From Stigonema ocellatum SAG 48.90 = DSM 106950 (GTDB lineage: Bacteria; Cyanobacteriota; Cyanobacteriia; Cyanobacteriales; Nostocaceae), in NCBI GenBank assembly GCA_016903675.1, contig JADQBA010000180.1, forward strand, positions 1-16,167: a stretch of 16,167 nucleotides of DNA, in the 5' to 3' direction. Both the position numbers and the translations under genes were made by a program. Within the stretch, counting starts at the first letter, position 1. Each line of letters begins with the position of its first letter. The notes beneath the pieces were generated by a model. It searched no databases, was not told the origin of the DNA, and saw nothing but the letters and a program-made list of their open reading frames with translations. Shown piece after piece: positions 573 through 16,167 of this stretch.

Positions 573-1013
573 ATGGAGCCATTGACTGCTGGGGCGATCG
601 CCATTGGGACTGTAATTGCGACTAAGGCTTTAGAAAAAACGGGCGAAAAGGTAGGCGAAGCTTTATGGGATAAAACTGGTAAGTTTCTGATCACGCTCAG
701 AAAACACTCTCCCCATACCGTAGTTGCTATTGAAAAAGCCCCCTCTCAAGCACTCGATTACGGTAAAGCTGTATTAGAGGTAGAATCAGCAGCTATTGCT
801 CATCCTGAAGTAAATCAAGCTGTGCAGGAACTGGTAGCTGAAGCATCCGCTAATCCACCATTGAACTATGCTCAAGCATTGAGAGAAATAAAAGAAGCTG
901 TGGAGAAATCTCAACTACAGTATACTCCCACTTTTATTCAAAACATCCAAAAAGCTATTAATGCGGCTCAAACTCAAGCCATTGACCAACGTAATAGTAC
1001 TTTCAATATTTGA
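573..1013 (+). CDS. 146-aa helical N-terminal module, in frame with the downstream NB-ARC/TPR gene (candidate effector or adaptor domain of the STAND protein)
   Basis: ATG 573 with AAGG at 564-567. Gly/Ala-rich hydrophobic helix LTAGAIAIGTVIATKAL followed by Glu/Lys/Ala-rich helical sequence. Same reading frame as ORF 1107..3200, separated from it only by TGA 1011-1013. No family recognised by eye. Confidence 0.55.
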   Translation: MEPLTAGAIAIGTVIATKALEKTGEKVGEALWDKTGKFLITLRKHSPHTVVAIEKAPSQALDYGKAVLEVESAAIAHPEVNQAVQELVAEASANPPLNYAQALREIKEAVEKSQLQYTPTFIQNIQKAINAAQTQAIDQRNSTFNI

Positions 1014-1106
1014 CTGGAGTCGTCCGACGGGAACCGGACAAAGTTAAATCCCCCAAATAATCTTCAGTTTACAGGCTCTGCTAACTTTGTAGGGCGATCG
1101 CATGAG

Positions 1107-3200
1107 ATGACCCTACTCCGTGATAGGTTGCAACAAAGAGGCGTTGTTGCCATCACTGCTGTTGCTGGTATGGGTGGAGTTGGTAAAACTGAATTAGCAA
1201 CGCAATACGCAAGACAGCATGAAGCTGATTACCCTGGTGGTATTTGCTGGTTATCAGCCAGAGAATCAGATTTAGCTGTGGAGATTGTGCAGTTCGCGCA
1301 GCTTCAGATGAAATTGGAAGTCCCACAACAAGATTTTCGTGGAAGGGTGTTGAGTCTGACTGAACAGGTGGAGTGGTGCTGGCAGCATTGGCAACCACCA
1401 GAGGGGTTGGCACTGATCATACTAGATGATGTCACATCTTTAGAGGGTTGTGGAGATTTTCTACCAAGGGCTAACCGATTTCGGGTGCTGATGACAACAC
1501 GGGTGCGGAATCTAGACCCTAATATTGAGGAGATTTCCTTAGATGTGCTGTCACCAGAATTCGCTTTGGAATTATTGACAAAACTCGTGGGTCAAAAGCG
1601 AGTACAAAGGGAACTGGAAGTAGCTAAACAATTGTGTGAATGGTTAGGTTATCTACCTCTGGGTTTGGAATTGGTGGGAAGGTATGTGGCGAAAAAACCT
1701 CCCAACTACAAGTTAGCCGAGATGTTAGAGCGCTTGAAAGCACAACGACTCTCAGATGAAGCGATTAATAGCGTCAGCGATTCCAAGAAAAAAAATCTCA
1801 GCACTGCACAGCGAGGAGTTTTAGCCGCATTTGAATTAAGCTGGCGCTCCCTTGATGAAATGACGCAGCGTGTTGCCGCATTATTAAGCTTGTTTGCACC
1901 AAATATCTTTGCTTGGGAATGGGTGGAGTCTGCAAGTGAATTGCTCAATTGGGTGGATGCTGATGTTCAGACAGCGAATGAGCAACTCTATGGATTTCAC
2001 TTGATTCAATGGGTAGAGGATACATCTGGTGAGTATAAAATTAGAATCCATACCCTAATTCGCGAGTTTCTGAAAGTTAAGCTAGCAGCATTAGAACAAG
2101 CTGATGTTTTGAAACGGGGTTTTGTAAAGGTAATGGTGGCGATCGCCCAAGATATTCCCTCGAACCCAACTGTGGAATTAATTACAAGAGTTAAAGATTA
2201 TATCCCACATTTAGCAGAGGTAGCACAAAATCTGATTGATGCAGTCAGTGATGAAAATTTATATTGGGTTTTTTATGGGTTAGACCGATTTTATTCTGGA
2301 CAGGGATTATATGCTCTAGCAGAACCTTGGTTAAAGCAATGTGTATCAGTAGTACAATCCCGCTTAGGAGAAGAGCATCCCTCTGTCGCCACCAGTTACA
2401 ACAACCTGGCTCTACTCTACGAATCCCAAGGAAGGTACCAAGATGCGGAACCACTGCATAAAAAAGCATTATTGCTCACGCAAAGGCTGCTGGGAGAAGA
2501 GCATCCCTCTGTCGCCACCAGTTACAACAACCTGGCAGGACTCTATCGTAACCAAGGTCAGTACAGCGAAGCGGAACCACTGTTTAAAAAAGCATTAGAA
2601 TTCAGGCAACGCCTACTGGGAGAAGAGCATCCGGATGTCGCCCAAAGTTACAACAACCTGGCAGGACTCTACGAATCCCAAGGTCGGTACAGCGAAGCGG
2701 AAACTCTGTTTAAAAAAGCATTAGAATTCAGGCAACGCCTGCTGGGAGAAGAGCATCCCTCTGTCGCCACCAGTTACAACAACCTGGCAGTACTCTACTC
2801 TGACCAAGGAAGGTACCAAGAAGCGGAACCACTGTATAAAAAAGCACTATTGCTCAGGCAAAGGCTGCTGGGAGAAGAGCATCCCTCTGTCGCCACCAGT
2901 TACAACGACCTGGCAGGACTCTATCGTAACCAAGGTCAGTACAGCGAAGCGGAACCTCTGTATAAAAAAGCATTAGAACTATTGCAACGCCTGCTGGGAG
3001 AAGAGCATCCCTCTGTCGCCACCAGTTACAACAACCTGGCTTATCTCTACGATAACCCAGGAAGGTACCAAGATGCGGAACCACTGTATAAAAAAGCATT
3101 GTCAATTGCTGAACTTAGCTTAGGGGTAGATCATCCCACAACAGCGACGATCCGTAAAAATCTCAAATCCTTACGCGATAATTATGCGGAAGCACCATAA
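1107..3200 (+). CDS. NLR-like STAND NTPase: NB-ARC domain plus C-terminal TPR array
   Basis: Walker A GMGGVGKT, Walker B LIILDDV, RVLMTTR, and GYLPLGLELVG (GLPL-type motif) match the NB-ARC/APAF-1-type core. The C-terminus carries six 42-aa TPR units plus a cap. The frame is already open and protein-like from 1014 (..NLQFTGSANFVGRSHEM..), so ATG 1107 is probably not the native N-terminus. Confidence 0.9.
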   Translation: MTLLRDRLQQRGVVAITAVAGMGGVGKTELATQYARQHEADYPGGICWLSARESDLAVEIVQFAQLQMKLEVPQQDFRGRVLSLTEQVEWCWQHWQPPEGLALIILDDVTSLEGCGDFLPRANRFRVLMTTRVRNLDPNIEEISLDVLSPEFALELLTKLVGQKRVQRELEVAKQLCEWLGYLPLGLELVGRYVAKKPPNYKLAEMLERLKAQRLSDEAINSVSDSKKKNLSTAQRGVLAAFELSWRSLDEMTQRVAALLSLFAPNIFAWEWVESASELLNWVDADVQTANEQLYGFHLIQWVEDTSGEYKIRIHTLIREFLKVKLAALEQADVLKRGFVKVMVAIAQDIPSNPTVELITRVKDYIPHLAEVAQNLIDAVSDENLYWVFYGLDRFYSGQGLYALAEPWLKQCVSVVQSRLGEEHPSVATSYNNLALLYESQGRYQDAEPLHKKALLLTQRLLGEEHPSVATSYNNLAGLYRNQGQYSEAEPLFKKALEFRQRLLGEEHPDVAQSYNNLAGLYESQGRYSEAETLFKKALEFRQRLLGEEHPSVATSYNNLAVLYSDQGRYQEAEPLYKKALLLRQRLLGEEHPSVATSYNDLAGLYRNQGQYSEAEPLYKKALELLQRLLGEEHPSVATSYNNLAYLYDNPGRYQDAEPLYKKALSIAELSLGVDHPTTATIRKNLKSLRDNYAEAP
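2364..3119 (+). repeat. Six tandem 126-nt (42-aa) TPR-coding units, near-identical at DNA level
   Basis: Units start at 2364, 2490, 2616, 2742, 2868 and 2994. Consensus LGEEHPSVATSYNNLAxLYxxQGxYxxAEPLxKKALxxxQRL. A degenerate cap follows at 3120-3197. Confidence 0.95.
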
Positions 3201-3893: not shown

Positions 3894-4022
3894 AGTAGCA
3901 CAGGCGTTTTGATCGGCACTGAGCGCGTTCGCCAGTCCGGGACGGCTTATAGCCACGGAATAACACAATTATGTATTATAAATGTATTACATAAATTCAT
4001 AAAGTTTAACTTACAAAAATGA
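3888..4022 (+). CDS. Possible 44-codon upstream ORF translationally coupled to the kinase-like gene
   Basis: GAGG at 3879-3882 lies 5 nt before ATG 3888. Its TGA (4020-4022) overlaps the ATG (4019-4021) of the next gene in an ATGA arrangement. The downstream gene has no obvious SD of its own. The second half is AT-rich and could equally be non-coding. Confidence 0.3.
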   Translation: MNSSTGVLIGTERVRQSGTAYSHGITQLCIINVLHKFIKFNLQK

Positions 4023-5104
4023 ATGGTGAAGTCATTACTGATATTCGTCAAATAACTCTTGACTGGCTCAATTCAGTGCTTATTGGTAGTGCCGCACTGG
4101 TTACAGGCAAAGTCCTTGATTTTGCTATGGAAGTCAAAGGAAGTGAAAATGCCCGGATTGTAAAAATCCGGCCTCAATATAAACAAGGAGCAACTGGTAC
4201 AACGCCTGCAATGCTGTTGCTGAAAATGTGTTTAGGCAATAATACTACTTTTGGAGATTCAGAAGTCAATTACTATACGCGGGATTACATTGATCTAATA
4301 AATCGACCGCTACCGATAAGCTACCATGCACGATATGCACAGAACCCTCCTCGCTATCACATTCTCATGGAAGACCTATCTGCAAGCCATAGTCCTAGTT
4401 GGAAAATTAAGCCAACACTTGCATACGGATGTGCAGTTGCTCAAGCCCTAGCTACATTGCACGCACATTGGTGGGGAAGCGAAAAGTTAGAGGCCATTGG
4501 TGCTAATATTCCCAGCCACAGTGAAATTGAGCGATACGTGGCTCATGCCCAACCAGGATTACTACCAATGTTGTCGGAGGTTAGGAGTGAAATTGATAGA
4601 GAGTGGCAGTCAGTACTTATGGATGTGTTTCAGTACCATCCAGGCAAGATGATTGAGCGCACTTCCAACTCATCTGGCTTCACATTGATTCACGGTGATG
4701 TTAACCCTGGTAATATTCTTTATCCATTAAATGGAGAGGGAAAAATTTATCTGATTGACCGCCAGCCGTTTGATTGGTCACTAACTACTTGGCTGGGAGT
4801 CAGCGATATTGCGTATATGATGGTGCATTGGTGGGAACCCAATTGGCGACGGCAATTAGAAATTCCTATCTTACGCGAATATCATACAAATCTTTTAAGC
4901 AATGGTGTGTCTGGTTACGATTGGGAGCAACTGATAAACGACTATAAACTGGCTGCTGTTCAAAGTCTTTACGTTGCTTGTCAGTGGTGTGTCTCTCCCC
5001 AAGAGCGTCGCCAGATGAAATGGGTATGGCTTCCGCAACTGCTCAAGTCGATGACAGCTTTCTTTGACTTGCGCTGTTCTGAGTTATGGACATTGTGGAA
5101 ATAG
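4019..5104 (+). CDS. Kinase-fold phosphotransferase (APH / choline-kinase / EcKL-like family)
   Basis: Catalytic-loop motif LIHGDVNPGNILY and downstream YLIDRQPFDW (metal-binding Asp), as in the aminoglycoside/ecdysteroid-kinase-like phosphotransferase fold. 361 aa, a typical size. Confidence 0.7.
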   Translation: MNGEVITDIRQITLDWLNSVLIGSAALVTGKVLDFAMEVKGSENARIVKIRPQYKQGATGTTPAMLLLKMCLGNNTTFGDSEVNYYTRDYIDLINRPLPISYHARYAQNPPRYHILMEDLSASHSPSWKIKPTLAYGCAVAQALATLHAHWWGSEKLEAIGANIPSHSEIERYVAHAQPGLLPMLSEVRSEIDREWQSVLMDVFQYHPGKMIERTSNSSGFTLIHGDVNPGNILYPLNGEGKIYLIDRQPFDWSLTTWLGVSDIAYMMVHWWEPNWRRQLEIPILREYHTNLLSNGVSGYDWEQLINDYKLAAVQSLYVACQWCVSPQERRQMKWVWLPQLLKSMTAFFDLRCSELWTLWK

Positions 5105-6519: not shown

Positions 6520-7146
6520 ATGAAAGTAATAGCAATCGTGTCGAGAAAAGGTGGGAGCGGGAAGTCAACTATTGCAATTCACTTAGCTGTTGCTGCGTCA
6601 ATAGCAGGTAAGGAAACAGCAATTATTGACTTAGACCCGCAGTCATCAGCAGCAAAGTGGTCAGATTCTCGCTCGGCAGAATTCCCCGTTGTGGTTTCTG
6701 CTCAGGCTTCCCGACTGGAGAAGGTATTAGAAGCAGCAGAAAAAGAGGGGGCAGATTTGGTTTTTATTGATACCTCCCCACACACAGAAACAGCGGCTCT
6801 TGCTGCTATTCGTGCAGCTGATTTAATCTTGGTTCCTTGCCGCCCGTCGATTGTGGATTTACGCGCCATTGATGACACTATCGATTTGATTAAGCTAGCG
6901 AAAAAAACATCTGTTGCCGCCGCAGTTCTCAATGGTGTTCCACCCCAAGGGTCACTGGGAGATGAAGCCGTTGAAGCGATCGCTGGTTATGGTATAGCTG
7001 TTGCCCCAGTCAAAATTGGGCATAGATCCGCATTCGTTCGCTCGCTCACAGATGGGCTAACCGCTATTGAATACGAGCCAAAAGGTAAAGCAGCAAAAGA
7101 AATTAATGCTTTGTACAAGTGGACATGTACACAAGTTAAAGTGTAA
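6520..7146 (+). CDS. parA: ParA/Soj-family partition ATPase (small, type-Ib-like, no N-terminal HTH)
   Basis: Deviant Walker A SRKGGSGKST at the N-terminus, IIDLDPQ, and Walker B-like LVFIDTSP. 208 aa. Followed by a small RHH gene. Confidence 0.9.
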   Translation: MKVIAIVSRKGGSGKSTIAIHLAVAASIAGKETAIIDLDPQSSAAKWSDSRSAEFPVVVSAQASRLEKVLEAAEKEGADLVFIDTSPHTETAALAAIRAADLILVPCRPSIVDLRAIDDTIDLIKLAKKTSVAAAVLNGVPPQGSLGDEAVEAIAGYGIAVAPVKIGHRSAFVRSLTDGLTAIEYEPKGKAAKEINALYKWTCTQVKV

Positions 7147-7164
7147 AAAAGTGGAGGAGTGGAC

Positions 7165-7446
7165 ATGAACCCAAAGAAGACGACGAAACTAGGCAATGCT
7201 TTACATAAGGCTAAAGAGTCCCCAGTAGCCGAGGTTGCAGCACAAGAAGAACAGCCGCAAGAAAACCAAAAATATCCGTTACCACCAAGTCGCCAAGGAA
7301 CCCGAACAATAGCTGGTCATTTTGATCCAGCGGTAGCTATTCAGTTGAAAAGGATGGCAGCAGAGAAAGAAACTACGGTACAAGCTTTATTGACAGAAGC
7401 GTTAAACCTCTTGTTTGAAAAACATGGTGAGAAACCAATAGCTTAA
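7165..7446 (+). CDS. Ribbon-helix-helix (CopG/ParG-like) centromere-binding partner of ParA
   Basis: GGAGGAG at 7153-7159 lies 5 nt before ATG 7165 (the ORF track starts at GTG 7159). Disordered Lys/Glu/Pro-rich N-terminus. The C-terminal TIAGHFDPAVAIQLKRMAAEKETTVQALLTEALNLLFEKHG fits a strand-helix-helix pattern. Position immediately 3' of parA. Confidence 0.7.
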   Translation: MNPKKTTKLGNALHKAKESPVAEVAAQEEQPQENQKYPLPPSRQGTRTIAGHFDPAVAIQLKRMAAEKETTVQALLTEALNLLFEKHGEKPIA

Positions 7447-9219: not shown

Positions 9220-10659
9220 ATGAAAAAGCTCAGTTCATTTGTTCTGGCAGCACTTTTATTTGTCAGTACATTCTTTTCTATGACTCTTAATGCCTTTGCT
9301 GAAACAACCTCTGCCATTGGCATTGTTAACACCGTATTGACCGACAGCAAGATCGCATCTGGAAGAACTCAGCCAGGTACAACTAACTGGCAGCGATATA
9401 ACGACTATAGTGTTTATGTAGATGTTGACACTAGTGCTGCCCAATTTACTCAAACACCAATATATGTAACTTCACTTTTAGGCACCATTAACCATTGGAA
9501 ACTCACTGGAATTAGCGCTGTTTATAGTGCGACGGCAAAAGGCTTTCGTATATATCTCACAACGGAGAATGACACCGAAAAACTGACTCCAGAGATTGCC
9601 AATAGTCGTAATTGGCATGTCAATTGGATTGGCATTGAGCCTTTCACAGCAATAGGTTCCAACGCTAACGCTCAGACACCTTCAACAATAAAACCAACTC
9701 CCATTGATAATAAGAATGGTACTATCTCCACGGAACCAGGTAAAACCACAAAAGTTCAGGTGACTGTCGATCTTCCAGCCGATATTGGCTATAACAATAG
9801 TTTTGGAATCTTCAAAATCAACGATGATGGCAGCGTAGCAGGAGTCAAACCAGGCGCTGCTAATTATGCTGAAACTGTGGTCAAAAATCGTATTCCTTTA
9901 GCAGATGTTGATAAAGGTTCATATAAAAAAGGACAGACCTTTAAATACGATTTACCGGGTGGGTCAAAATATGGCGTATTCTTGATTGCCAACGGAACTC
10001 CAGACCAGTTCTTACAGAAGAACCCCACAAATAAAGGGTCTGAACCACCCTTGGCTTACTTCTTCGATACAGCAGCCAACCCCGACCAAAAATCTCACGT
10101 TAAGGTGTCATCAGATAAACCCAATCAATACGGTTTTGAGGATATGTACGGGGGAGGAGATCAAGACTTTGATGACCTGATTGTCAAACTAGAAACTTTG
10201 TCAGTTGAACCAATTGCTCAGACACCACTTCCTACACCAGGGAAATACTACTATCTCGTCAACAAAAATAGCGAAAAAGCATTAGCTATAACTGGTGGTA
10301 TTACTGCTGATGGAAGCGGGGCTCTCCAATGGTATAACCAGAAAGCAGATAATTTCAAATGGCTGTTAGAAGATGCAGGTAGTGGCTACTTCTACCTTAT
10401 AATTAAACACAGCGGTAAAGCATTAGCTACGACTGGTGGTAACACCGATGGAGGCTCTGTCGTACAATCGACTAACGAGAAATTAGATAATTTCAAATGG
10501 CTGTTAAAAGATGCTGGTAATGGCTATTTCTACCTCATCAGCAAACCAAACGACAAAGTTTTAAATGTAGAGGATTCTAGCACTGCTGCTGGAGCGGCTA
10601 TCACTCAGCGGGACAACAAAGGCACTGATAATCAACAATGGAGATTTGAACCTGTGTAG
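9220..10659 (+). CDS. Secreted multi-domain lectin-like protein (N-terminal H-type-lectin-like region, DUF4114-like middle, C-terminal ricin-B-type beta-trefoil)
   Basis: Signal peptide MKKLSSFVLAALLFVSTFFSMTLNAFA/ET. GFEDMYGGGDQDFDDLIVKL is a DUF4114-type signature. The C-terminus has a three-fold internal repeat with W motifs (LQW..DNFKWLLEDAGSGYFYLI / DNFKWLLKDAGNGYFYLI / DNQQWRFEPV), as in a (QxW)3 ricin-type trefoil. The H-type lectin call for residues about 50-140 (..TPIYVTSL..AKGFRIYL..NWIGIE) is tentative. Confidence 0.85.
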   Translation: MKKLSSFVLAALLFVSTFFSMTLNAFAETTSAIGIVNTVLTDSKIASGRTQPGTTNWQRYNDYSVYVDVDTSAAQFTQTPIYVTSLLGTINHWKLTGISAVYSATAKGFRIYLTTENDTEKLTPEIANSRNWHVNWIGIEPFTAIGSNANAQTPSTIKPTPIDNKNGTISTEPGKTTKVQVTVDLPADIGYNNSFGIFKINDDGSVAGVKPGAANYAETVVKNRIPLADVDKGSYKKGQTFKYDLPGGSKYGVFLIANGTPDQFLQKNPTNKGSEPPLAYFFDTAANPDQKSHVKVSSDKPNQYGFEDMYGGGDQDFDDLIVKLETLSVEPIAQTPLPTPGKYYYLVNKNSEKALAITGGITADGSGALQWYNQKADNFKWLLEDAGSGYFYLIIKHSGKALATTGGNTDGGSVVQSTNEKLDNFKWLLKDAGNGYFYLISKPNDKVLNVEDSSTAAGAAITQRDNKGTDNQQWRFEPV

Positions 10660-11712: not shown

Positions 11713-12648
11713 CTAGTATTTGGTCAGTTTATCTAAAGCAAGTTGTGCTATTTCTTCGGCTCGGGATGATGTAACTTTTTGATAACGCAATGTAGTCTGT
11801 ATGTTCTCATGACCCATCAATGCACGAAGCGTCTCAATCCCCATCAATCCGACGCGCTCAGTTGCGAAAGTATGCCGCAGATCGTGAATCCGAATTCCCA
11901 CGAGTACTGGACTCTGAGCAATTAAATCACTCCAACACTTATGAAATCGGCGGTAACTTAAGCGAGTCACCTCTCCCGTCAATGGTTGCTCTGCCGTAAA
12001 AAGCGCACTGCAAAGGGGATGCCTCTCGTATCGGAGATATTTTTCAAGAGCGATCGCCGCATCGTCGCTGTAAAAACACCACCGCTGTTTATTTCCCTTG
12101 CCAACCACCTGAAATTTCCGAGAACCTCGGTCAACACTCTCCAAATCCAACGCTAATAGCTCACTAATTCTTGCTCCGGTACGGTGAAGCAACCTTACCA
12201 AAGCATTCATTCTCAAATCCATCGCCACTAGTTTATACAAAATCGTAAGCTGTTGATTAGTAAGGTAGCGGATAACTTCATCAGTTCCGTATTCTCCTTT
12301 TTCTGGATCAGGCTTGCGTCTTTTTAGACCAGCTATCGGATTATTACTTAAATACCCTTGCTCTACGGCAAAATTAAACAGAGCCTGAATGATAGCCTGG
12401 TGACGATGATGGGTGGTAAGACGAATATGTGTCAAACGATTCAAGTAATCACAAAGTTCCTGTCGGCTGATGATTTTCACTGACCACCATCCATATTCTT
12501 TTAACAAGGGCATCAAGGTAAATTCATAAGAATCCCGTGTATTCTTACTCAAGCCTGGACGGTCTAAAAATTCTCTGGCTAATCTAGCTAAAGTAATTGA
12601 CAAGTGACTACACATCTGAGTTGACTTGTTTCTTAACTCGCTTGTCAA
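11713..12648 (-). CDS. Tyrosine site-specific recombinase (XerC/D-phage integrase fold; candidate TnpI/TnpS-type cointegrate resolvase)
   Basis: Full catalytic set visible: HRTGARISELLAL (Arg), GKGNKQR (Lys), HDLRHTFAT (His-x-x-Arg), LMGHENIQTTLRYQKV (His, Tyr). The ORF-track start is TTG 12648. ATG 12615 (MCSHLSITLARLAREFL..) is an alternative start. Confidence 0.9.
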   Translation of the reverse strand: MTSELRNKSTQMCSHLSITLARLAREFLDRPGLSKNTRDSYEFTLMPLLKEYGWWSVKIISRQELCDYLNRLTHIRLTTHHRHQAIIQALFNFAVEQGYLSNNPIAGLKRRKPDPEKGEYGTDEVIRYLTNQQLTILYKLVAMDLRMNALVRLLHRTGARISELLALDLESVDRGSRKFQVVGKGNKQRWCFYSDDAAIALEKYLRYERHPLCSALFTAEQPLTGEVTRLSYRRFHKCWSDLIAQSPVLVGIRIHDLRHTFATERVGLMGIETLRALMGHENIQTTLRYQKVTSSRAEEIAQLALDKLTKY

Positions 12649-12687: not shown

Positions 12688-13140
12688 ATGTACTTTTTAG
12701 CAGAGCAGCAAGCCCCAAGACTAGGAGAAACCTTGGACAACTATATCCAGCGATTGCGATCCGGACTTCATTTGAGCCAACAGCAGTTAGCAACAAGAGC
12801 GGGAATTCACATTCAGAGTATGGGTAAGATTGAGCGCGGTCAAACCCAAAGACTTAACCAAAAAACTAAAACTGGTCTAGCGTCAGCACTGTCCATACCT
12901 ATTGAGTATCTGGATGCAGTGCTTTGTGGTCAACCAGTATCGACAGTGGAAAAGAAGCAATTTTGTCCGAAATGCTGGATTCCTGGTACTAATCCAGATC
13001 CGGTGTGGCTCATGCAACGCGCCAAGTATTGTTTAACTTGTGGTACTACTTTACGTACTCGCTGTCGTAACTGCTCTGAAGCAATCACTGACTTTAAACA
13101 TCGATTCTGTCCCAGCTGCGGCACTGCTTATTCCGAGTAA
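12688..13140 (+). CDS. XRE/Cro-type HTH regulator fused to a C-terminal double zinc ribbon
   Basis: HTH segment LSQQQLATRAGIHIQSMGKIERGQ. The C-terminus has four CxxC pairs (CPKC, CLTC, CRNC, CPSC). Divergent from the recombinase gene and co-directional with tnpA. Confidence 0.75.
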   Translation: MYFLAEQQAPRLGETLDNYIQRLRSGLHLSQQQLATRAGIHIQSMGKIERGQTQRLNQKTKTGLASALSIPIEYLDAVLCGQPVSTVEKKQFCPKCWIPGTNPDPVWLMQRAKYCLTCGTTLRTRCRNCSEAITDFKHRFCPSCGTAYSE

Positions 13141-13203: not shown

Positions 13204-16167
13204 GTGACATCTATAGAACGCACGGCTTATCCCAGATTCAAACGCTATTTCACGACCAAAGAACTCGGAGAAATTTACACTCCGACAAAATCTGAAATTG
13301 CGTTTGCTTATAGCACTACCAACGGTCAGAGTAACATTTTAAACTTGGTAGTTTTCTTAAAGACATTCCAGCGTCTTGGTTATTTTCCCAAGATTGTTGA
13401 AGTCCCTAATTCAATATTAAATCATGTAAGAGGCTGTTTAAAACTACCGACTGAAATAGGTTTGGTTTATGAAAACTCTAAAACAATGTATCGGCATCGA
13501 ACGGCTATCCGTGAGTATCTTAAAATTAATCCTTTTGACAAAAATGCACGGAACTTTTGCGTTCAGTCTGTCTACGAATCTGCGCAGGTGATGGATAATC
13601 CGGCTGATTTAATCAATGTAGCCATTGGGGAATTAGTTAAGCAACGGTATGAACTACCTGGATTTAACACTTTAGACCGATTGGTAGGTCGGGTGAGGAC
13701 TTTGGTTAACCAAAAGCTATTTTCTTTGGTAATTAGCCGACTTGAGGATGATTATATACAGAGGTTGAATGACTTATTGTCTAGTCATTCTGTTGAGCGA
13801 CGCAGTCCCTATAATGACTTGAAACAGCTACCAAAACGTCCAACCCGTGACCATCTTAACGATTTAATTGTTCATCTAACTTGGCTTGATTCACTTGGAG
13901 AGGTCAAAGCATTTCTCAACAATATTACAGTAGCAAAAATCCAACATTTCGCGGCTGAAGCTAGAGTATTAGAAGAAGAGTGAAGTTAAGGAGATTAATC
14001 AGCCAAAACGTATCACACTCCTGTTATCTTTAATTTACGCGGCTCAAGTGCAAACCAGAGATAACTTAGTATCTATGTTTCTCACTCATATTGCGGACTA
14101 TTCATAACAGTGCTAAAGAGGAATTAGAGGAACTTCGACAGAAAAACCAAGAAACTATCGAAAAATTGGTGGGTGTTTTTAGTAATGTCCTACAGGTATT
14201 CGTCGAGCCGCCACCAGATACGGAAGTGATTCAGCTTTGTTATCAGGTGTTTGAACCTGTTGGGGGAGCACAGCAACTATTAAATGAATGTGAGGGGGTT
14301 AACGCTTATAAGGGGAATAACTATCTCCCTTTAATATGGCGATTTTACAAGAGTCATCGCAGTGCATTTTTCCGATTACTTAATGCGCTAAAGTTTGAGT
14401 CTACCAGTCAAGAGCAAACTATTATCGAGGCTGTCAAGTTTTTACAATTAAATGCAAATCGCCGTACTGAGTTCTTTCCAGATACGTTAGATTTATCTTT
14501 TGCTTCCCCACAGTGGCTGAAACTATTGAAGGTTCAACAAGGAGAAAAAAACAAAATTGTCCGTCGTCCTAAGCGAAGTTTGTGTATTCTCCTATCTAGA
14601 AGCAGAACTTAGGTCAGCGGACATTTGTGTCATTGGAAGCGAAGACTATGCCGACTACCGAGAGCAGTTAGCTAGTTGGTCAGAATGTCAACCATTGGTA
14701 GCTAAATATTGTGAGAATTTAGGTTTTCCTGACACAGCTTCTGGGTTTGTAGCACAATTAAAATCTTGGTTGATAGATACTGCTACCTCGGTAGATGCAG
14801 GTTATTCAGATAATCGACAGATTGTAATTAACGCTTCGGGAGAGCCAGTTTTAAAAAGACCATCTCGGATTGAATTAAGCCCTTCTGCTCAAATTCTTTC
14901 ACAAGCAGTTGAAGAAAGATTTCCCGAACGTAATCTTGTCGATATCCTGAGAAATGTAGACTACTGGACTAATTTTACGCGGCACTTTGGGCCGATGAGT
15001 GGTTCTGATCCAAAACTAGAACATGCTACTGAACGTTATCTTCTAACTACCTTTACTTATGGATGTAATTTGGGAGCAACTCAGGCAGCACGTCATATGC
15101 GGGGAGTGGTAACTGCCAAAGAGTTATCGTTTGTGAATCGGCGTCATGTAAGTGGAGATAAACTTCAGAAGGCACTAACTGATATAATTAACCGCTACAA
15201 TGTTTTGAATATACCAAAAATTTGGGGCGACGGTACAACAGCAGCAGCAGATGGGACAAAGTATGAACTTTACGAAGAAAATCTCCTGTCTGAATATCAC
15301 ATTCGCTATGGTGGTTATGGTGGAATTGCTTACCACCATGTAGCTGATAGTTATGTGGCATTATTTAGCCACTTTATTCCTTGTGGAACCTGGGAAGCAG
15401 TTTACATTATTGAAGGTTTATTGAAAAATTTCTCAGATATTCAGCCTGATACTATTTATGCTGATACCCAAGGTCAATCAACACCTGTATTTGCACTATC
15501 ATACCTGTTGGGGATTAAGTTAATGCCCCGCATTCGCAACTGGAAAGATTTGAATTTTTATCGTCCTGATAAGAATACTGTTTATAAACATATTGATTCT
15601 CTTTTTAAGGATACTATTGACTGGGGAATAATTGAAACACACTGGCAAGATTTATTACAGGTTGTACTTTCAATTCAAACCGGGAAAATTTCTTCAGCTT
15701 TATTGTTGAGAAAGTTGGGAAACTACAGTCGGAAGAACAGACTTTATCAAGCATTCCAGGAATTGGGACGAGTCGTCAGGACAGTATTTTTGTTGTTGTA
15801 TATTTTCGATATACAAATGCGCTCCTTAATTACTGCTGCAACCAACAAGGTAGAATCGTATCACGGCTTTTCCAAATGGTTTGGCTTTGGAGGGTTTGGA
15901 ATTATTGCTCATAATGACCCCATAGAACAAGAAAAGATGATCAAGTATAACGATTTGATTGCGAATGCTGTTATCTTCCACAACGTGGTGGATTTGACTG
16001 ATATTTTGCGTGATTTGAAACGTGATGGCTATTTAATTCTTCGTGAAGATGTAGCCGCTTTGAGTCCATACATGACTAGTCATATTAAACGATTTGGTGA
16101 TTATTTGATTGATTTGGATACTGTGCCGCAGACATTAGATGAGATTGGGGCTTTTGTTTTAATTTAG
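13204..16167 (+). pseudogene. tnpA: Tn3-family DDE transposase, disrupted by three +1 frame changes
   Basis: GTG 13204 gives MTSIERTAYPRF (DUF4158-type TnpA N-terminus). DDE region AADGTKY / YADTQGQS / NKVESYHGF. The span of 988 codons matches full-length TnpA. The protein-like reading moves through frames 1>2>0>1 at about 13973-13981, 14090-14094 and 14568-14574. Confidence 0.9.

Follow-up and report, generated by a model that had tools for sequence, protein, structure and literature searches.

An in-frame UGA followed by a covarying hairpin links Bell-like modules to NLR-type sensors in Nostocales: a candidate programmed read-through cassette

The first 16,167 nt of contig JADQBA010000180.1 of Stigonema ocellatum (hereafter the window, to whose coordinates all positions given without a locus name refer) carry a gene for a small helical protein and, directly behind it, the coding sequence of an NLR-like NTPase, joined by a single in-frame TGA; this junction and its relatives in Nostocales are the subject of the present work. 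Walking the open reading frames (ORFs) gave the same layout as a preliminary description made from the letters of the window: ORF 573..1013 (146 aa, ATG start) and ORF 1107..3200 (697 aa) share one frame, and the sole stop between them is the TGA at 1011-1013 (Table 1). The intervening stretch 1014-1106 translates to LESSDGNRTKLNPPNNLQFTGSANFVGRSHE and holds no ATG, GTG or TTG, the first such codon being ATG 1107 (post-stop codon 31), located 20 codons 5' of the P-loop GMGGVGKT. In Pfam searches the AAA_16 match starts at post-stop residue 24, exactly at the FVGR element that the preliminary description had seen before ATG 1107 and near the P-loop, and the NB-ARC match (62.8 bits, cut-off 23.5) covers residues 33-252 of the post-stop translation. 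Since the AAA_16/NB-ARC matches begin before ATG 1107, the NTPase domain starts upstream of that codon. Further downstream, the Walker A P-loop is followed by a repeat sensor array (TPR_12 and TPR_10 matches), the architecture of a STAND NTPase of the NB-ARC/TPR (NLR-like) kind that had been proposed. The pattern TGA-N7-CGYYYS-N8-SRRRY-AAAG, which describes the junction, occurs once in the window against 0.01 expected occurrences, an arrangement far beyond chance.

The 146-aa module belongs to a large family of short proteins. A homologue search found 566 members, the best 120 of which measure 119-158 aa and come from Nostoc, Stigonema, Brasilonema, Anabaena, Calothrix, Fischerella and related genera (Nostocales), and a profile search of 1.84 billion cluster representatives matched 320 clusters, about 95% of them at 120-160 aa. 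The AlphaFold2 (AF2) model of the module (predicted local distance difference test, pLDDT, 84) contains seven helices, the N-terminal one spanning residues 3-23, as anticipated from its Gly/Ala-rich hydrophobic start and the helical character of the remainder; the tail is modelled as a helix with lower confidence. The N-terminal helix is the best-conserved part of the family, distant members included (MEP[LV]..TAGAIA), and in the window (MEPLTAGAIAIGTVIATKAL) this hydrophobic helix has its acidic residue at position 2 (M-E-P). Bell domains are described in the same terms: they measure 120-140 aa, form a helical bundle and begin with a hydrophobic helix that has its acidic residue at position 2 or 3; their genes are abundant in Nostocaceae, stand beside NLR genes and encode a C-terminal amyloid motif (BASS), of which the NLR carries a repeat at its own N-terminus (Dyrka et al. 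2020, bioRxiv 10.1101/2020.01.06.895854). The module fits this published description and would thus be Bell-like. Of the two identities first suggested for it, Bell/HeLo-like agrees with that description and EAD-like is not supported, there being no Pfam EAD/EACC1 match; EACC1 was discarded as the identity of the module, since it is an actinobacterial domain with a single transmembrane segment and has caspases as partners (Kaur et al. 2020, PMC7159879).

Other searches with the module returned little. No meaningful family was found in NCBIfam, PADLOC or Pfam (in the last, none at E<=0.1), a Foldseek comparison of the AF2 model with the PDB gave no usable fold (best E 0.94), and megablast of the region against plasmids yielded a single partial TPR match. 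The module profile against PDB sequences produced just a spurious, short repeated similarity to WD40 units, which we rejected: profile positions 27-47 (window 651-713, GEALWDKTGKFLVTLKKHS) match the WD40 repeats of the Nostoc punctiforme protein PDB 2ymu_A at E 3e-12, with no single significant stretch and a short likeness to the repeat unit LW..G..L.TL.GHS that is probably spurious. Among distant relatives, P0168, P0204 and P0219 are single-ORF fusions of the module to dynamin-type GTPases, so that the module can act as the N-terminal domain of an NTPase.

The question raised by the preliminary description, namely whether the TGA is conserved in relatives, was addressed in two sets of sequences. 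In the first, 80 genome loci were fetched and each module ORF was followed to its stop: in 51 of them the module ends in TGA and is followed by 116-1230 in-frame codons, in 20 it ends in TAA or TAG with no continuation, and a few TGA loci have decayed downstream frames. The second was a metagenome scan with the hairpin alone (CGYCYGANNGGGAACGGRYAAAGTYAA), a pattern free of the TGA and of all module sequence. It gave 39 occurrences, 38 of which have a TGA exactly 7 nt upstream of the pattern, in frame both with an upstream 135-180-aa ORF starting MEP[LV]..TAGAIA and with a downstream NB-ARC ORF. Many of these metagenome modules are highly divergent from that of the window, and they carry at least nine different tails. 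The TGA is thus conserved, in genomes and in metagenomes alike.

Other genomes and metagenomes together provided 88 distinct junctions, all with TGA; the base after the stop (+4) is C in 75, G in 10, A in 3 and T in none, identity figures that include pattern-selected metagenome sequences and are to that extent biased for the element, a bias of which the synonymous-rate (dS) result and the ungapped alignment given below are free. Among 150 ordinary long ORFs of these loci, 34 stop at TGA, and C stands at +4 in 3 of the 34. The junction context is therefore strongly biased to the weak TGA-C that had been pointed out in the window, together with the 5-bp stem starting 8 nt after the stop. U at +4 makes termination stronger (PMC5289835); the junctions pair a U-free, weak UGA context with an in-frame downstream ORF under purifying selection, the combination looked for in read-through genes. 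As 34 of 150 ordinary long ORFs end in it, TGA is a normal stop in these genomes, and a genome-wide reassignment of the codon was discarded on this ground and because TGA-type and TAA/TAG-type loci share one genome. A linked suppressor tRNA was ruled out as well: neither the window nor the 4-kb surroundings of 60 loci contain a tRNA gene.

These junctions span at least nine divergent tail types and at least seven downstream architectures. The partners behind the TGA comprise NB-ARC+TPR, NB-ARC with other repeats, NACHT+HEAT+NCC-H, another NACHT type, CHAT+TPR, CHASE2, a transmembrane segment (TM) with an FGE-sulfatase and TM with a PsbP-like domain. Membrane-anchored non-NTPase partners after TGA and hairpin are found in L014 and L017 (TM + FGE-sulfatase), L012 (CHASE2), and L049 and L058 (TM + PsbP-like). 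The FGE-sulfatase partners, of C-type-lectin fold, resemble the DGR-diversified sensors known from multicellular bacteria (PMC10907252). The cassette is also present in tandem paralogues: L082 (4014, 9658) and L116 (5196, 8123) each hold two window-type junctions 3-6 kb apart on one contig, and in each pair one copy has a truncated downstream frame.

An ungapped alignment of the TGA loci revealed, besides the invariant TGA, an element of about 36 nt, TGA-CTR-NAG-TC[GYCCG]AACGGGAA[CGGRC]AAAGTTAA, embedded in coding sequence that is far more divergent on both sides. The loop core GGGAA is nearly invariant, and RNAalifold predicts the 5-bp stem unaided. Over 50 distinct sequences, 98% of the stem cells are paired, compared with 10-41% after a shift of the 3' partner by 1-3 columns, and none of 500 column shuffles reached the observed stem score. 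Three of the five stem pairs show double changes (U-A to C-G or the reverse in 17 sequences, G-C to C-G or the reverse in 3, and C-G to U-A in 1), that is, the conserved 3' structure at fixed spacing, with covariation, that marks read-through signals. Such compensatory changes are non-synonymous (TCC/ACA, Ser/Thr, versus CCC/GCA, Pro/Ala), which argues that selection acts on the RNA and not on the peptide. An H-type pseudoknot between TCCC 1049-1052 and the loop GGGA 1029-1032 has 88% of its cells paired; with just one double change in one sequence, it is a candidate resting on conservation rather than covariation. No relevant Rfam family was found for the element at E<=10, and a second match of the hairpin pattern, on the minus strand of L045, was set aside as a chance match.

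One further example of the element lies in L120 (3,383,279-3,391,719 of the 6.41-Mb chromosome CP183817.1) at 4439-4480 of that locus, and reads TTT TGA CTA CAG TC GTCTG GCAGGGAA CAGAC AAAGTTAA, with a U-A compensatory pair. We take this chromosome to be of the Anabaena/Nostoc PCC 7120 type, which would thus carry a window-type locus.

With the Nei-Gojobori (NG86) method, we estimated substitution rates on 33 NB-ARC-type loci. Post-stop codons 1-11 have a dS of 0.23, compared with 1.25 in the module tail and 1.23 in NB-ARC, and a ratio of nonsynonymous to synonymous rates (dN/dS) of 1.0. For post-stop codons 12-31, dN/dS falls to 0.34 with the third position most variable; the values are 0.36 in the flanking module tail and 0.19 in NB-ARC. 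Codons 12-31, all of them 5' of ATG 1107, therefore evolve as coding sequence.

The downstream frames have no conserved start codon. Of 42 STAND-type loci, 28 offer no in-frame ATG, GTG or TTG up to and including the FVGR-type motif; in L007, L011 and L025 the first start comes after the P-loop, and L045, L049 and L058 have none before the CHAT or TM part. No single start codon is kept directly after the TGA, where CTG stands in 36 of the 88 junctions, CTA in 31 and GTG in 8, followed by CCA, ATC, GAA, CAG and others. In L002, one extra loop base puts the 3' half of the element in another frame and the ORF still runs open from the TGA into NB-ARC, indicating that the frame of the stop is what is preserved. 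Existing annotations reflect the same difficulty: in CP019637.1 the 'NLR' coding sequence begins at a TTG 102 codons past the stop, leaving the P-loop in an 'intergenic' gap, and on the PCC 7120-type chromosome the start chosen by the gene caller is a GTG that lies 5 residues N-terminal to the P-loop.

The comparison of two locus types gives the TGA a possible function. In type A (n=15: L015, L029, L033, L038, L040, L041, L046, L051, L059, L068, L071, L073, L076, L080 and L111) the module ends in TAA or TAG, and the NLR has its own start, ATG in most, 24-360 nt downstream, in frame 0, 1 or 2 relative to the module (7, 4 and 3 of 14 genome loci). The N-terminus of the type A NLR is a copy of the module tail. 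In L076, the tail NENWQGINIKGG..NTFNF of the module returns as MTNENSQGINIKGG..NTFNF in the NLR, and tail ends and NLR starts can be set side by side in L076 (..NENWQGINIKGGTNSIQNNTFNF and MTNENSQGINIKGGKNEIKDNTFNF..), L051 (..AEKIGQVVMPGGKGKIENQSF and MSEDSRKFAEKIGQVVMPGGQAYIGTQII..) and L111 (..ENWKGINIKGGNPNISNNTFNF* and MTDENWQGINLKGGNPTIKDNVINF..); the tail is repeated likewise in L038, L033 and L015. This is, to judge from the sequences, the published Bell/BASS amyloid-signalling layout. The hairpin is missing in 14 of the 15 type A loci, L111 being the one that retains it, and two genes with type A tails that end in TGA (L065, L075) have TGA-A or TGA-T, no hairpin and no continuation.

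Type B, the type of the window, has TGA and hairpin, is always in frame 0, and has neither an ATG of its own nor a second tail copy. Its linker and NB-ARC are nonetheless close homologues of those of type A, where the linker behind the tail copy (..GEKQLRPTKNIPRGSVHFVGRE..) is homologous to the window-type linker (..GERTKLTPTKSIPYRGSVNFVGRE..). The window itself has just 24 residues between TGA and FVGR and no tail copy, so the BASS motif pair is absent, and the type B TGA occupies the point at which the duplicated motif would give way to the linker. In the alignment, the window tail stands opposite the ..AEKIGQVVMPGGTGKIDNMSF tail of type A proteins (another tail of the family reads QKAINAAQTQAIDQRNSTFNI); since it is positionally homologous to tails that are duplicated on NLRs, it is a candidate amyloid-signalling (BASS-like) motif. 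The NB-ARC with its seven TPR units lies directly 3' of the module and collinear with it, as in most of the 80 loci, and the two types coexist in single genomes of Anabaena azotica (L013/L071), Aetokthonos (L053/L033) and Tolypothrix (L049/L080). Taken together, 'TGA + hairpin' and 'own ATG + second motif copy' are in complementary distribution. The preliminary description took a fusion to be the ancestral architecture; the two-gene form with paired motifs is widespread and could equally be the ancestral one. At L111 2861-3480, a Bell gene ends in TAA and an ATG-started NLR, 7 nt later, repeats the tail and has the hairpin inside it with no TGA; this locus may be an intermediate between the types, or the hairpin may have a second role.

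The previous analysis leads to the hypothesis that hairpin-assisted programmed UGA read-through is the best explanation of the locus, to which we assign a probability of about 0.7. The conserved TGA, its context and frame, the covariation of the stem, the coding signature after the stop and the lack of conserved starts are its basis. Of the three readings considered in the preliminary description, it is the leaky stop, giving a free module and a full-length fusion, that the comparative evidence favours. The simplest reading of the two locus types is that the type B sensor would obtain its signalling motif, and the Bell domain with it, by reading through the stop: type A NLRs have a motif copy and type B NLRs do not, which would make read-through the sole route by which a type B sensor acquires one.

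Mechanistically, most ribosomes would stop at TGA 1011-1013 and release the free 146-aa helical protein with its Q/N-rich tail, the major product and proposed executioner, or effector. A minority would decode the UGA, presumably with near-cognate tRNA-Trp and insertion of Trp by analogy with other bacteria, and pass through the linker into NB-ARC/TPR, making a Bell-tail-linker-NLR protein of about 97 kDa as the minor product. Both the weak UGA-C(UR) context and the RNA structure, a stem-loop or perhaps a pseudoknot, would presumably favour this step; the structure starts 8 nt downstream, where it would be positioned at the entrance of the mRNA channel. A UGA-CUA/CGG context with a structure at least 8 nt downstream is the classical type II viral read-through signal, and unassisted UGA read-through in bacteria amounts to 1-6% (PMC13517186). 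Once the TPR array senses its ligand, oligomerisation of the NLR would bring the tail motifs together, and these in turn would template or recruit the abundant free Bell protein; the hydrophobic N-terminal helix of Bell may then attack the membrane, with abortive infection or regulated cell death as the outcome. In E. coli, amyloid signalling of the same type has been shown to act in phage defence by the Bab/Agp system (bioRxiv 10.1101/2024.11.07.622273).

Going one step further, we lean, with somewhat better than even confidence, towards a dedicated cis-acting recoding cassette of Nostocales for an immune gene family, consisting of UGA-C, an 8-nt spacer, a covarying stem-loop or pseudoknot and AAAGUUAA, which would set the stoichiometry of executioner to nucleator and replace the second motif copy. 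In the same proposal, and at the same strength, the rare nucleator would be an NLR, a NACHT, a CHAT or a membrane-sensor protein, and the abundant executioner an amyloid-controlled pore-former. As read-through depends on RF2 activity and decoding fidelity, the sensor level could also report translational stress such as phage takeover; in Anabaena, a derepressed trn operon raises stop-codon read-through (PMC10272220).

Several observations weigh against programmed read-through. Downstream frames are truncated in L005, L043 and about 8 of the 38 metagenome matches, which shows that a module can be kept after its NLR part is lost. Of the 42 STAND loci, 14 do have an in-frame start ahead of the domain, and a GTG follows the TGA directly in 8 junctions, which makes reinitiation possible in a subset. 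The read-through product would include the whole Bell domain, unlike type A NLRs, and the hairpin retained by L111 without a TGA suggests another or an additional role for the element. The stem is short (5 bp, mean minimum free energy, MFE, of -7.2 kcal/mol for a 24-nt segment), and single-sequence folding of window 1005-1070 was no better than shuffles (z -0.56) and chose another fold, so the case for the structure is a comparative one. Finally, no earlier case in which a hairpin stimulates read-through by bacterial ribosomes is known to us.

The alternative that survives best, unlikely as we consider it, is a two-protein operon in which translation terminates at the TGA and the NLR is made by termination-reinitiation or from a non-canonical start (CUG, AUU or similar), with the hairpin serving in coupling, as a standby site or in RNA processing. 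In Bell/NLR pairs the partners are normally encoded by two genes that overlap or are separated by a short gap (bioRxiv 10.1101/2020.01.06.895854), and the 14 loci with a canonical start before the domain, as well as the GTG (8) and CTG (36) found directly after the TGA, speak for it. However, CTA, CCA, ATC, GAA or CAG occupies that position in 40 of the 88 junctions, and the 28 loci with no start before the domain, three of them with none before the P-loop, would be left unexplained. Independent initiation also needs no frame 0: type A uses all three frames and type B frame 0 alone. Moreover, the NLR so produced would be without the tail motif found on its type A homologues. The split two-protein system of the preliminary description describes the TAA/TAG sister loci, whose hallmarks are missing from the window type with its fixed frame, no ATG of its own and no second motif copy.

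Considerably less probable is that the junction is a recombination or cassette-shuffling site, with 36 nt kept alike by gene conversion and downstream frames that are untranslated from the junction, in the extreme form silent spare NLR cassettes. The joining of at least nine tail types to at least seven downstream architectures, the locally low synonymous divergence and the decay of several downstream frames would agree with such a site. Gene conversion, on the other hand, leaves unexplained the compensatory stem changes, the TGA at a fixed 8-nt distance, the +4 C bias and the purifying selection on the post-stop codons and on downstream frames of 400-1200 codons. The recombination reading is compatible with read-through and not opposed to it.

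Selenocysteine (Sec), with the TGA as the Sec codon and the hairpin as a bacterial SECIS bound by SelB, we regard as very improbable. In bacterial selenoprotein genes an in-frame UGA is followed closely by a conserved stem-loop of 17-18 nt with a G in its apical loop, and the junction shares this layout, although the loop here is closer to the UGA than in SECIS models. A Cys codon (TGY) is found at the site in none of the 88 junctions, the sense codon of L111 is not Cys, the linker between the domains, in which the site falls, offers no redox motif or redox context, and the Rfam search given above is also negative for it. Cyanobacteria are, in addition, reported to lack the Sec-decoding trait (PMC1794560, PMC9312934, PMC1273633).

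Translational bypassing, in which the ribosome would hop past both stop and hairpin as it does on T4 gene 60, we rate lower still: the adjoining stop and hairpin and the dN/dS of about 1 over 11 post-stop codons would suit it, but there are no matched take-off and landing codons, the pre-TGA codon varying (ATT, TTT, AAC, ACT and others) with no downstream repeat, and the frame is kept from the TGA even in L002 with its 1-nt loop insertion. A recent nonsense mutation, sequencing error or pseudogene, the first reading of the preliminary description, has nothing in its favour beyond the bare in-frame stop and is refuted by a TGA kept in 88 distinct junctions of many genera, with at least nine tails and seven architectures, and by a module length of about 146 aa kept in hundreds of proteins.

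Among the closest known systems are the amyloid-signalling ones, of which fungal HET-S/NWD2 is another named example. Like Bell/BASS/NLR pairs, the locus has a short helical protein of about 120-150 aa with a hydrophobic N-helix immediately 5' of a collinear NB-ARC/NACHT + TPR/HEAT gene, and its type A sister loci show the defining motif pair. It differs in that the window-type NLR has neither start codon nor motif copy and shares one frame with the module, across an invariant TGA-C and a covarying hairpin. Neither Dyrka et al. 2020 nor the Bab/Agp paper mentions such an arrangement (0 occurrences of 'stop codon' or 'same frame'). The EAD/EACC1 systems (Kaur et al. 2020, PMC7159879) are similar in having a constant N-terminal or upstream module with many partners (NB-ARC, NACHT, CHAT, FGE-sulfatase) in multicellular bacteria, and differ in the identity of that module.

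On the translational side, the type II/III signals of eukaryotic viruses likewise combine a UGA, a +4 C, a CUA or CUG next and an RNA structure from 8 nt after the stop, as in alphaviruses and coltiviruses (UGA-CUA/CGG with a stem-loop) or, with UAG, an 8-nt spacer and a pseudoknot, in MuLV (PMC13517186). They too yield two products with a common N-terminus in a set ratio. Here, by contrast, the genes are bacterial and cellular, read by 70S ribosomes with RF2, the stem is a small one of 5 bp, and the pseudoknot is a candidate. Phage Q-beta A1, dnaX and the phage tail-chaperone G/GT share the minor extended product from a common start and a ratio-dependent function; the Q-beta UGA, decoded at 3-5% (PMC13517186), has a UGA-A context and no known stimulatory structure, dnaX and G/GT are frameshifts, and none of them involves immune sensors. 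No report of read-through or recoding in cyanobacterial or Bell/NLR systems was found in the literature searched. The Bell/BASS/NLR system and stop-codon read-through are each known, and what is new is their combination, not described in that literature. The novelty would lie in a family of bacterial cellular genes that has a conserved UGA read-through cassette, associated with an RNA structure, in place of the second motif copy and the second start codon.

The surroundings of the locus are those of a plasmid or mobile element. A ParA-type ATPase (6520-7146), an RHH antitoxin-like protein (7159-7446), a tyrosine integrase on the minus strand (11713-12648) and a protein with HTH and double zinc ribbon (12688-13140) form the backbone, and from 13204 to the end of the window a Tn3-family transposase extends over three successive ORFs, probably a decayed or frameshifted copy. 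Related type B loci are likewise on plasmids (CP019637.1, NZ_CP040284.1). Directly 3' of the NLR, a 361-aa protein (4019-5104) has weak matches to EcKL/APH-type kinases (E 5e-6), and a 479-aa protein (9220-10659) has a hydrophobic signal-like start, DUF4114 and three ricin-B-type lectin repeats. The octamer GCGATCGC, which we take to be the HIP1 palindrome typical of cyanobacteria, is present at 593-600 in the codons of the first helix and at 1093-1100 in those of FVGR.

Table 1. Features of the junction and of the transposase remnant, in window coordinates.
Feature	Position	Strand	Basis or remark
Bell-like N-module coding sequence, 146 aa, all-helical	573..1010	+	homologue searches, AF2 model; would be the termination product
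N-terminal Gly/Ala-rich hydrophobic helix MEPLTAGAIAIGTVIATKALEKT, Glu at position 2	573..641	+	AF2 helix 3-23
C-terminal Q/N-rich tail (..FIQNIQKAINAAQTQAIDQRNSTFNI)	927..1010	+	alignment with type A tails; candidate BASS-like motif
In-frame TGA, proposed read-through site	1011..1013	+	same in 88/88 distinct junctions
8-nt spacer CTGGAGTC	1014..1021	+	junction alignment
31 post-stop codons with no canonical start	1014..1106	+	NG86: codons 1-11 nucleotide-constrained, 12-31 protein-constrained
Stem-loop: GTCCG 1022-1026 with CGGAC 1035-1039, loop 1027-1034 ACGGGAAC	1022..1039	+	RNAalifold, covariation
3' flank: AAAGTTAA 1040-1047, TCCC 1049-1052	1040..1052	+	conservation
NB-ARC NTPase: FVGR 1086-1097, P-loop GMGGVGKT 1167-1190	1086..1769	+	Pfam
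TPR sensor array, 7 TPR_12/TPR_10 units	2301..3167	+	Pfam TPR_12 E 1.4e-120, TPR_10 E 4.8e-100
TAA closing the read-through frame	3198..3200	+	875 sense codons from 573, TGA counted as one
Tn3 transposase piece	13204-13983		DUF4158
Tn3 transposase piece	14091-14612		no family
Tn3 transposase piece	14557-16167+		DDE_Tnp_Tn3, past window end

Programmed stop-codon read-through is textbook knowledge in RNA viruses and increasingly recognised in eukaryotes. To our knowledge, its bacterial record consists essentially of phage Q-beta and anecdotal cases, with no RNA-structure-dependent signal other than SECIS. A family-wide, structure-associated UGA read-through in cellular genes would, if true, be a new class of bacterial recoding, and the element of about 40 nt would offer a compact means of tunable two-product expression in cyanobacteria. 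The probable presence of a type B locus in the model strain Anabaena/Nostoc PCC 7120 makes the question directly accessible. Read-through would also explain the hundreds of cyanobacterial NLR genes that are annotated with truncated N-termini or with P-loops in 'intergenic' DNA, and it would show how an NLR and its executioner keep a fixed, low ratio of sensor to effector while sharing one common signalling motif.

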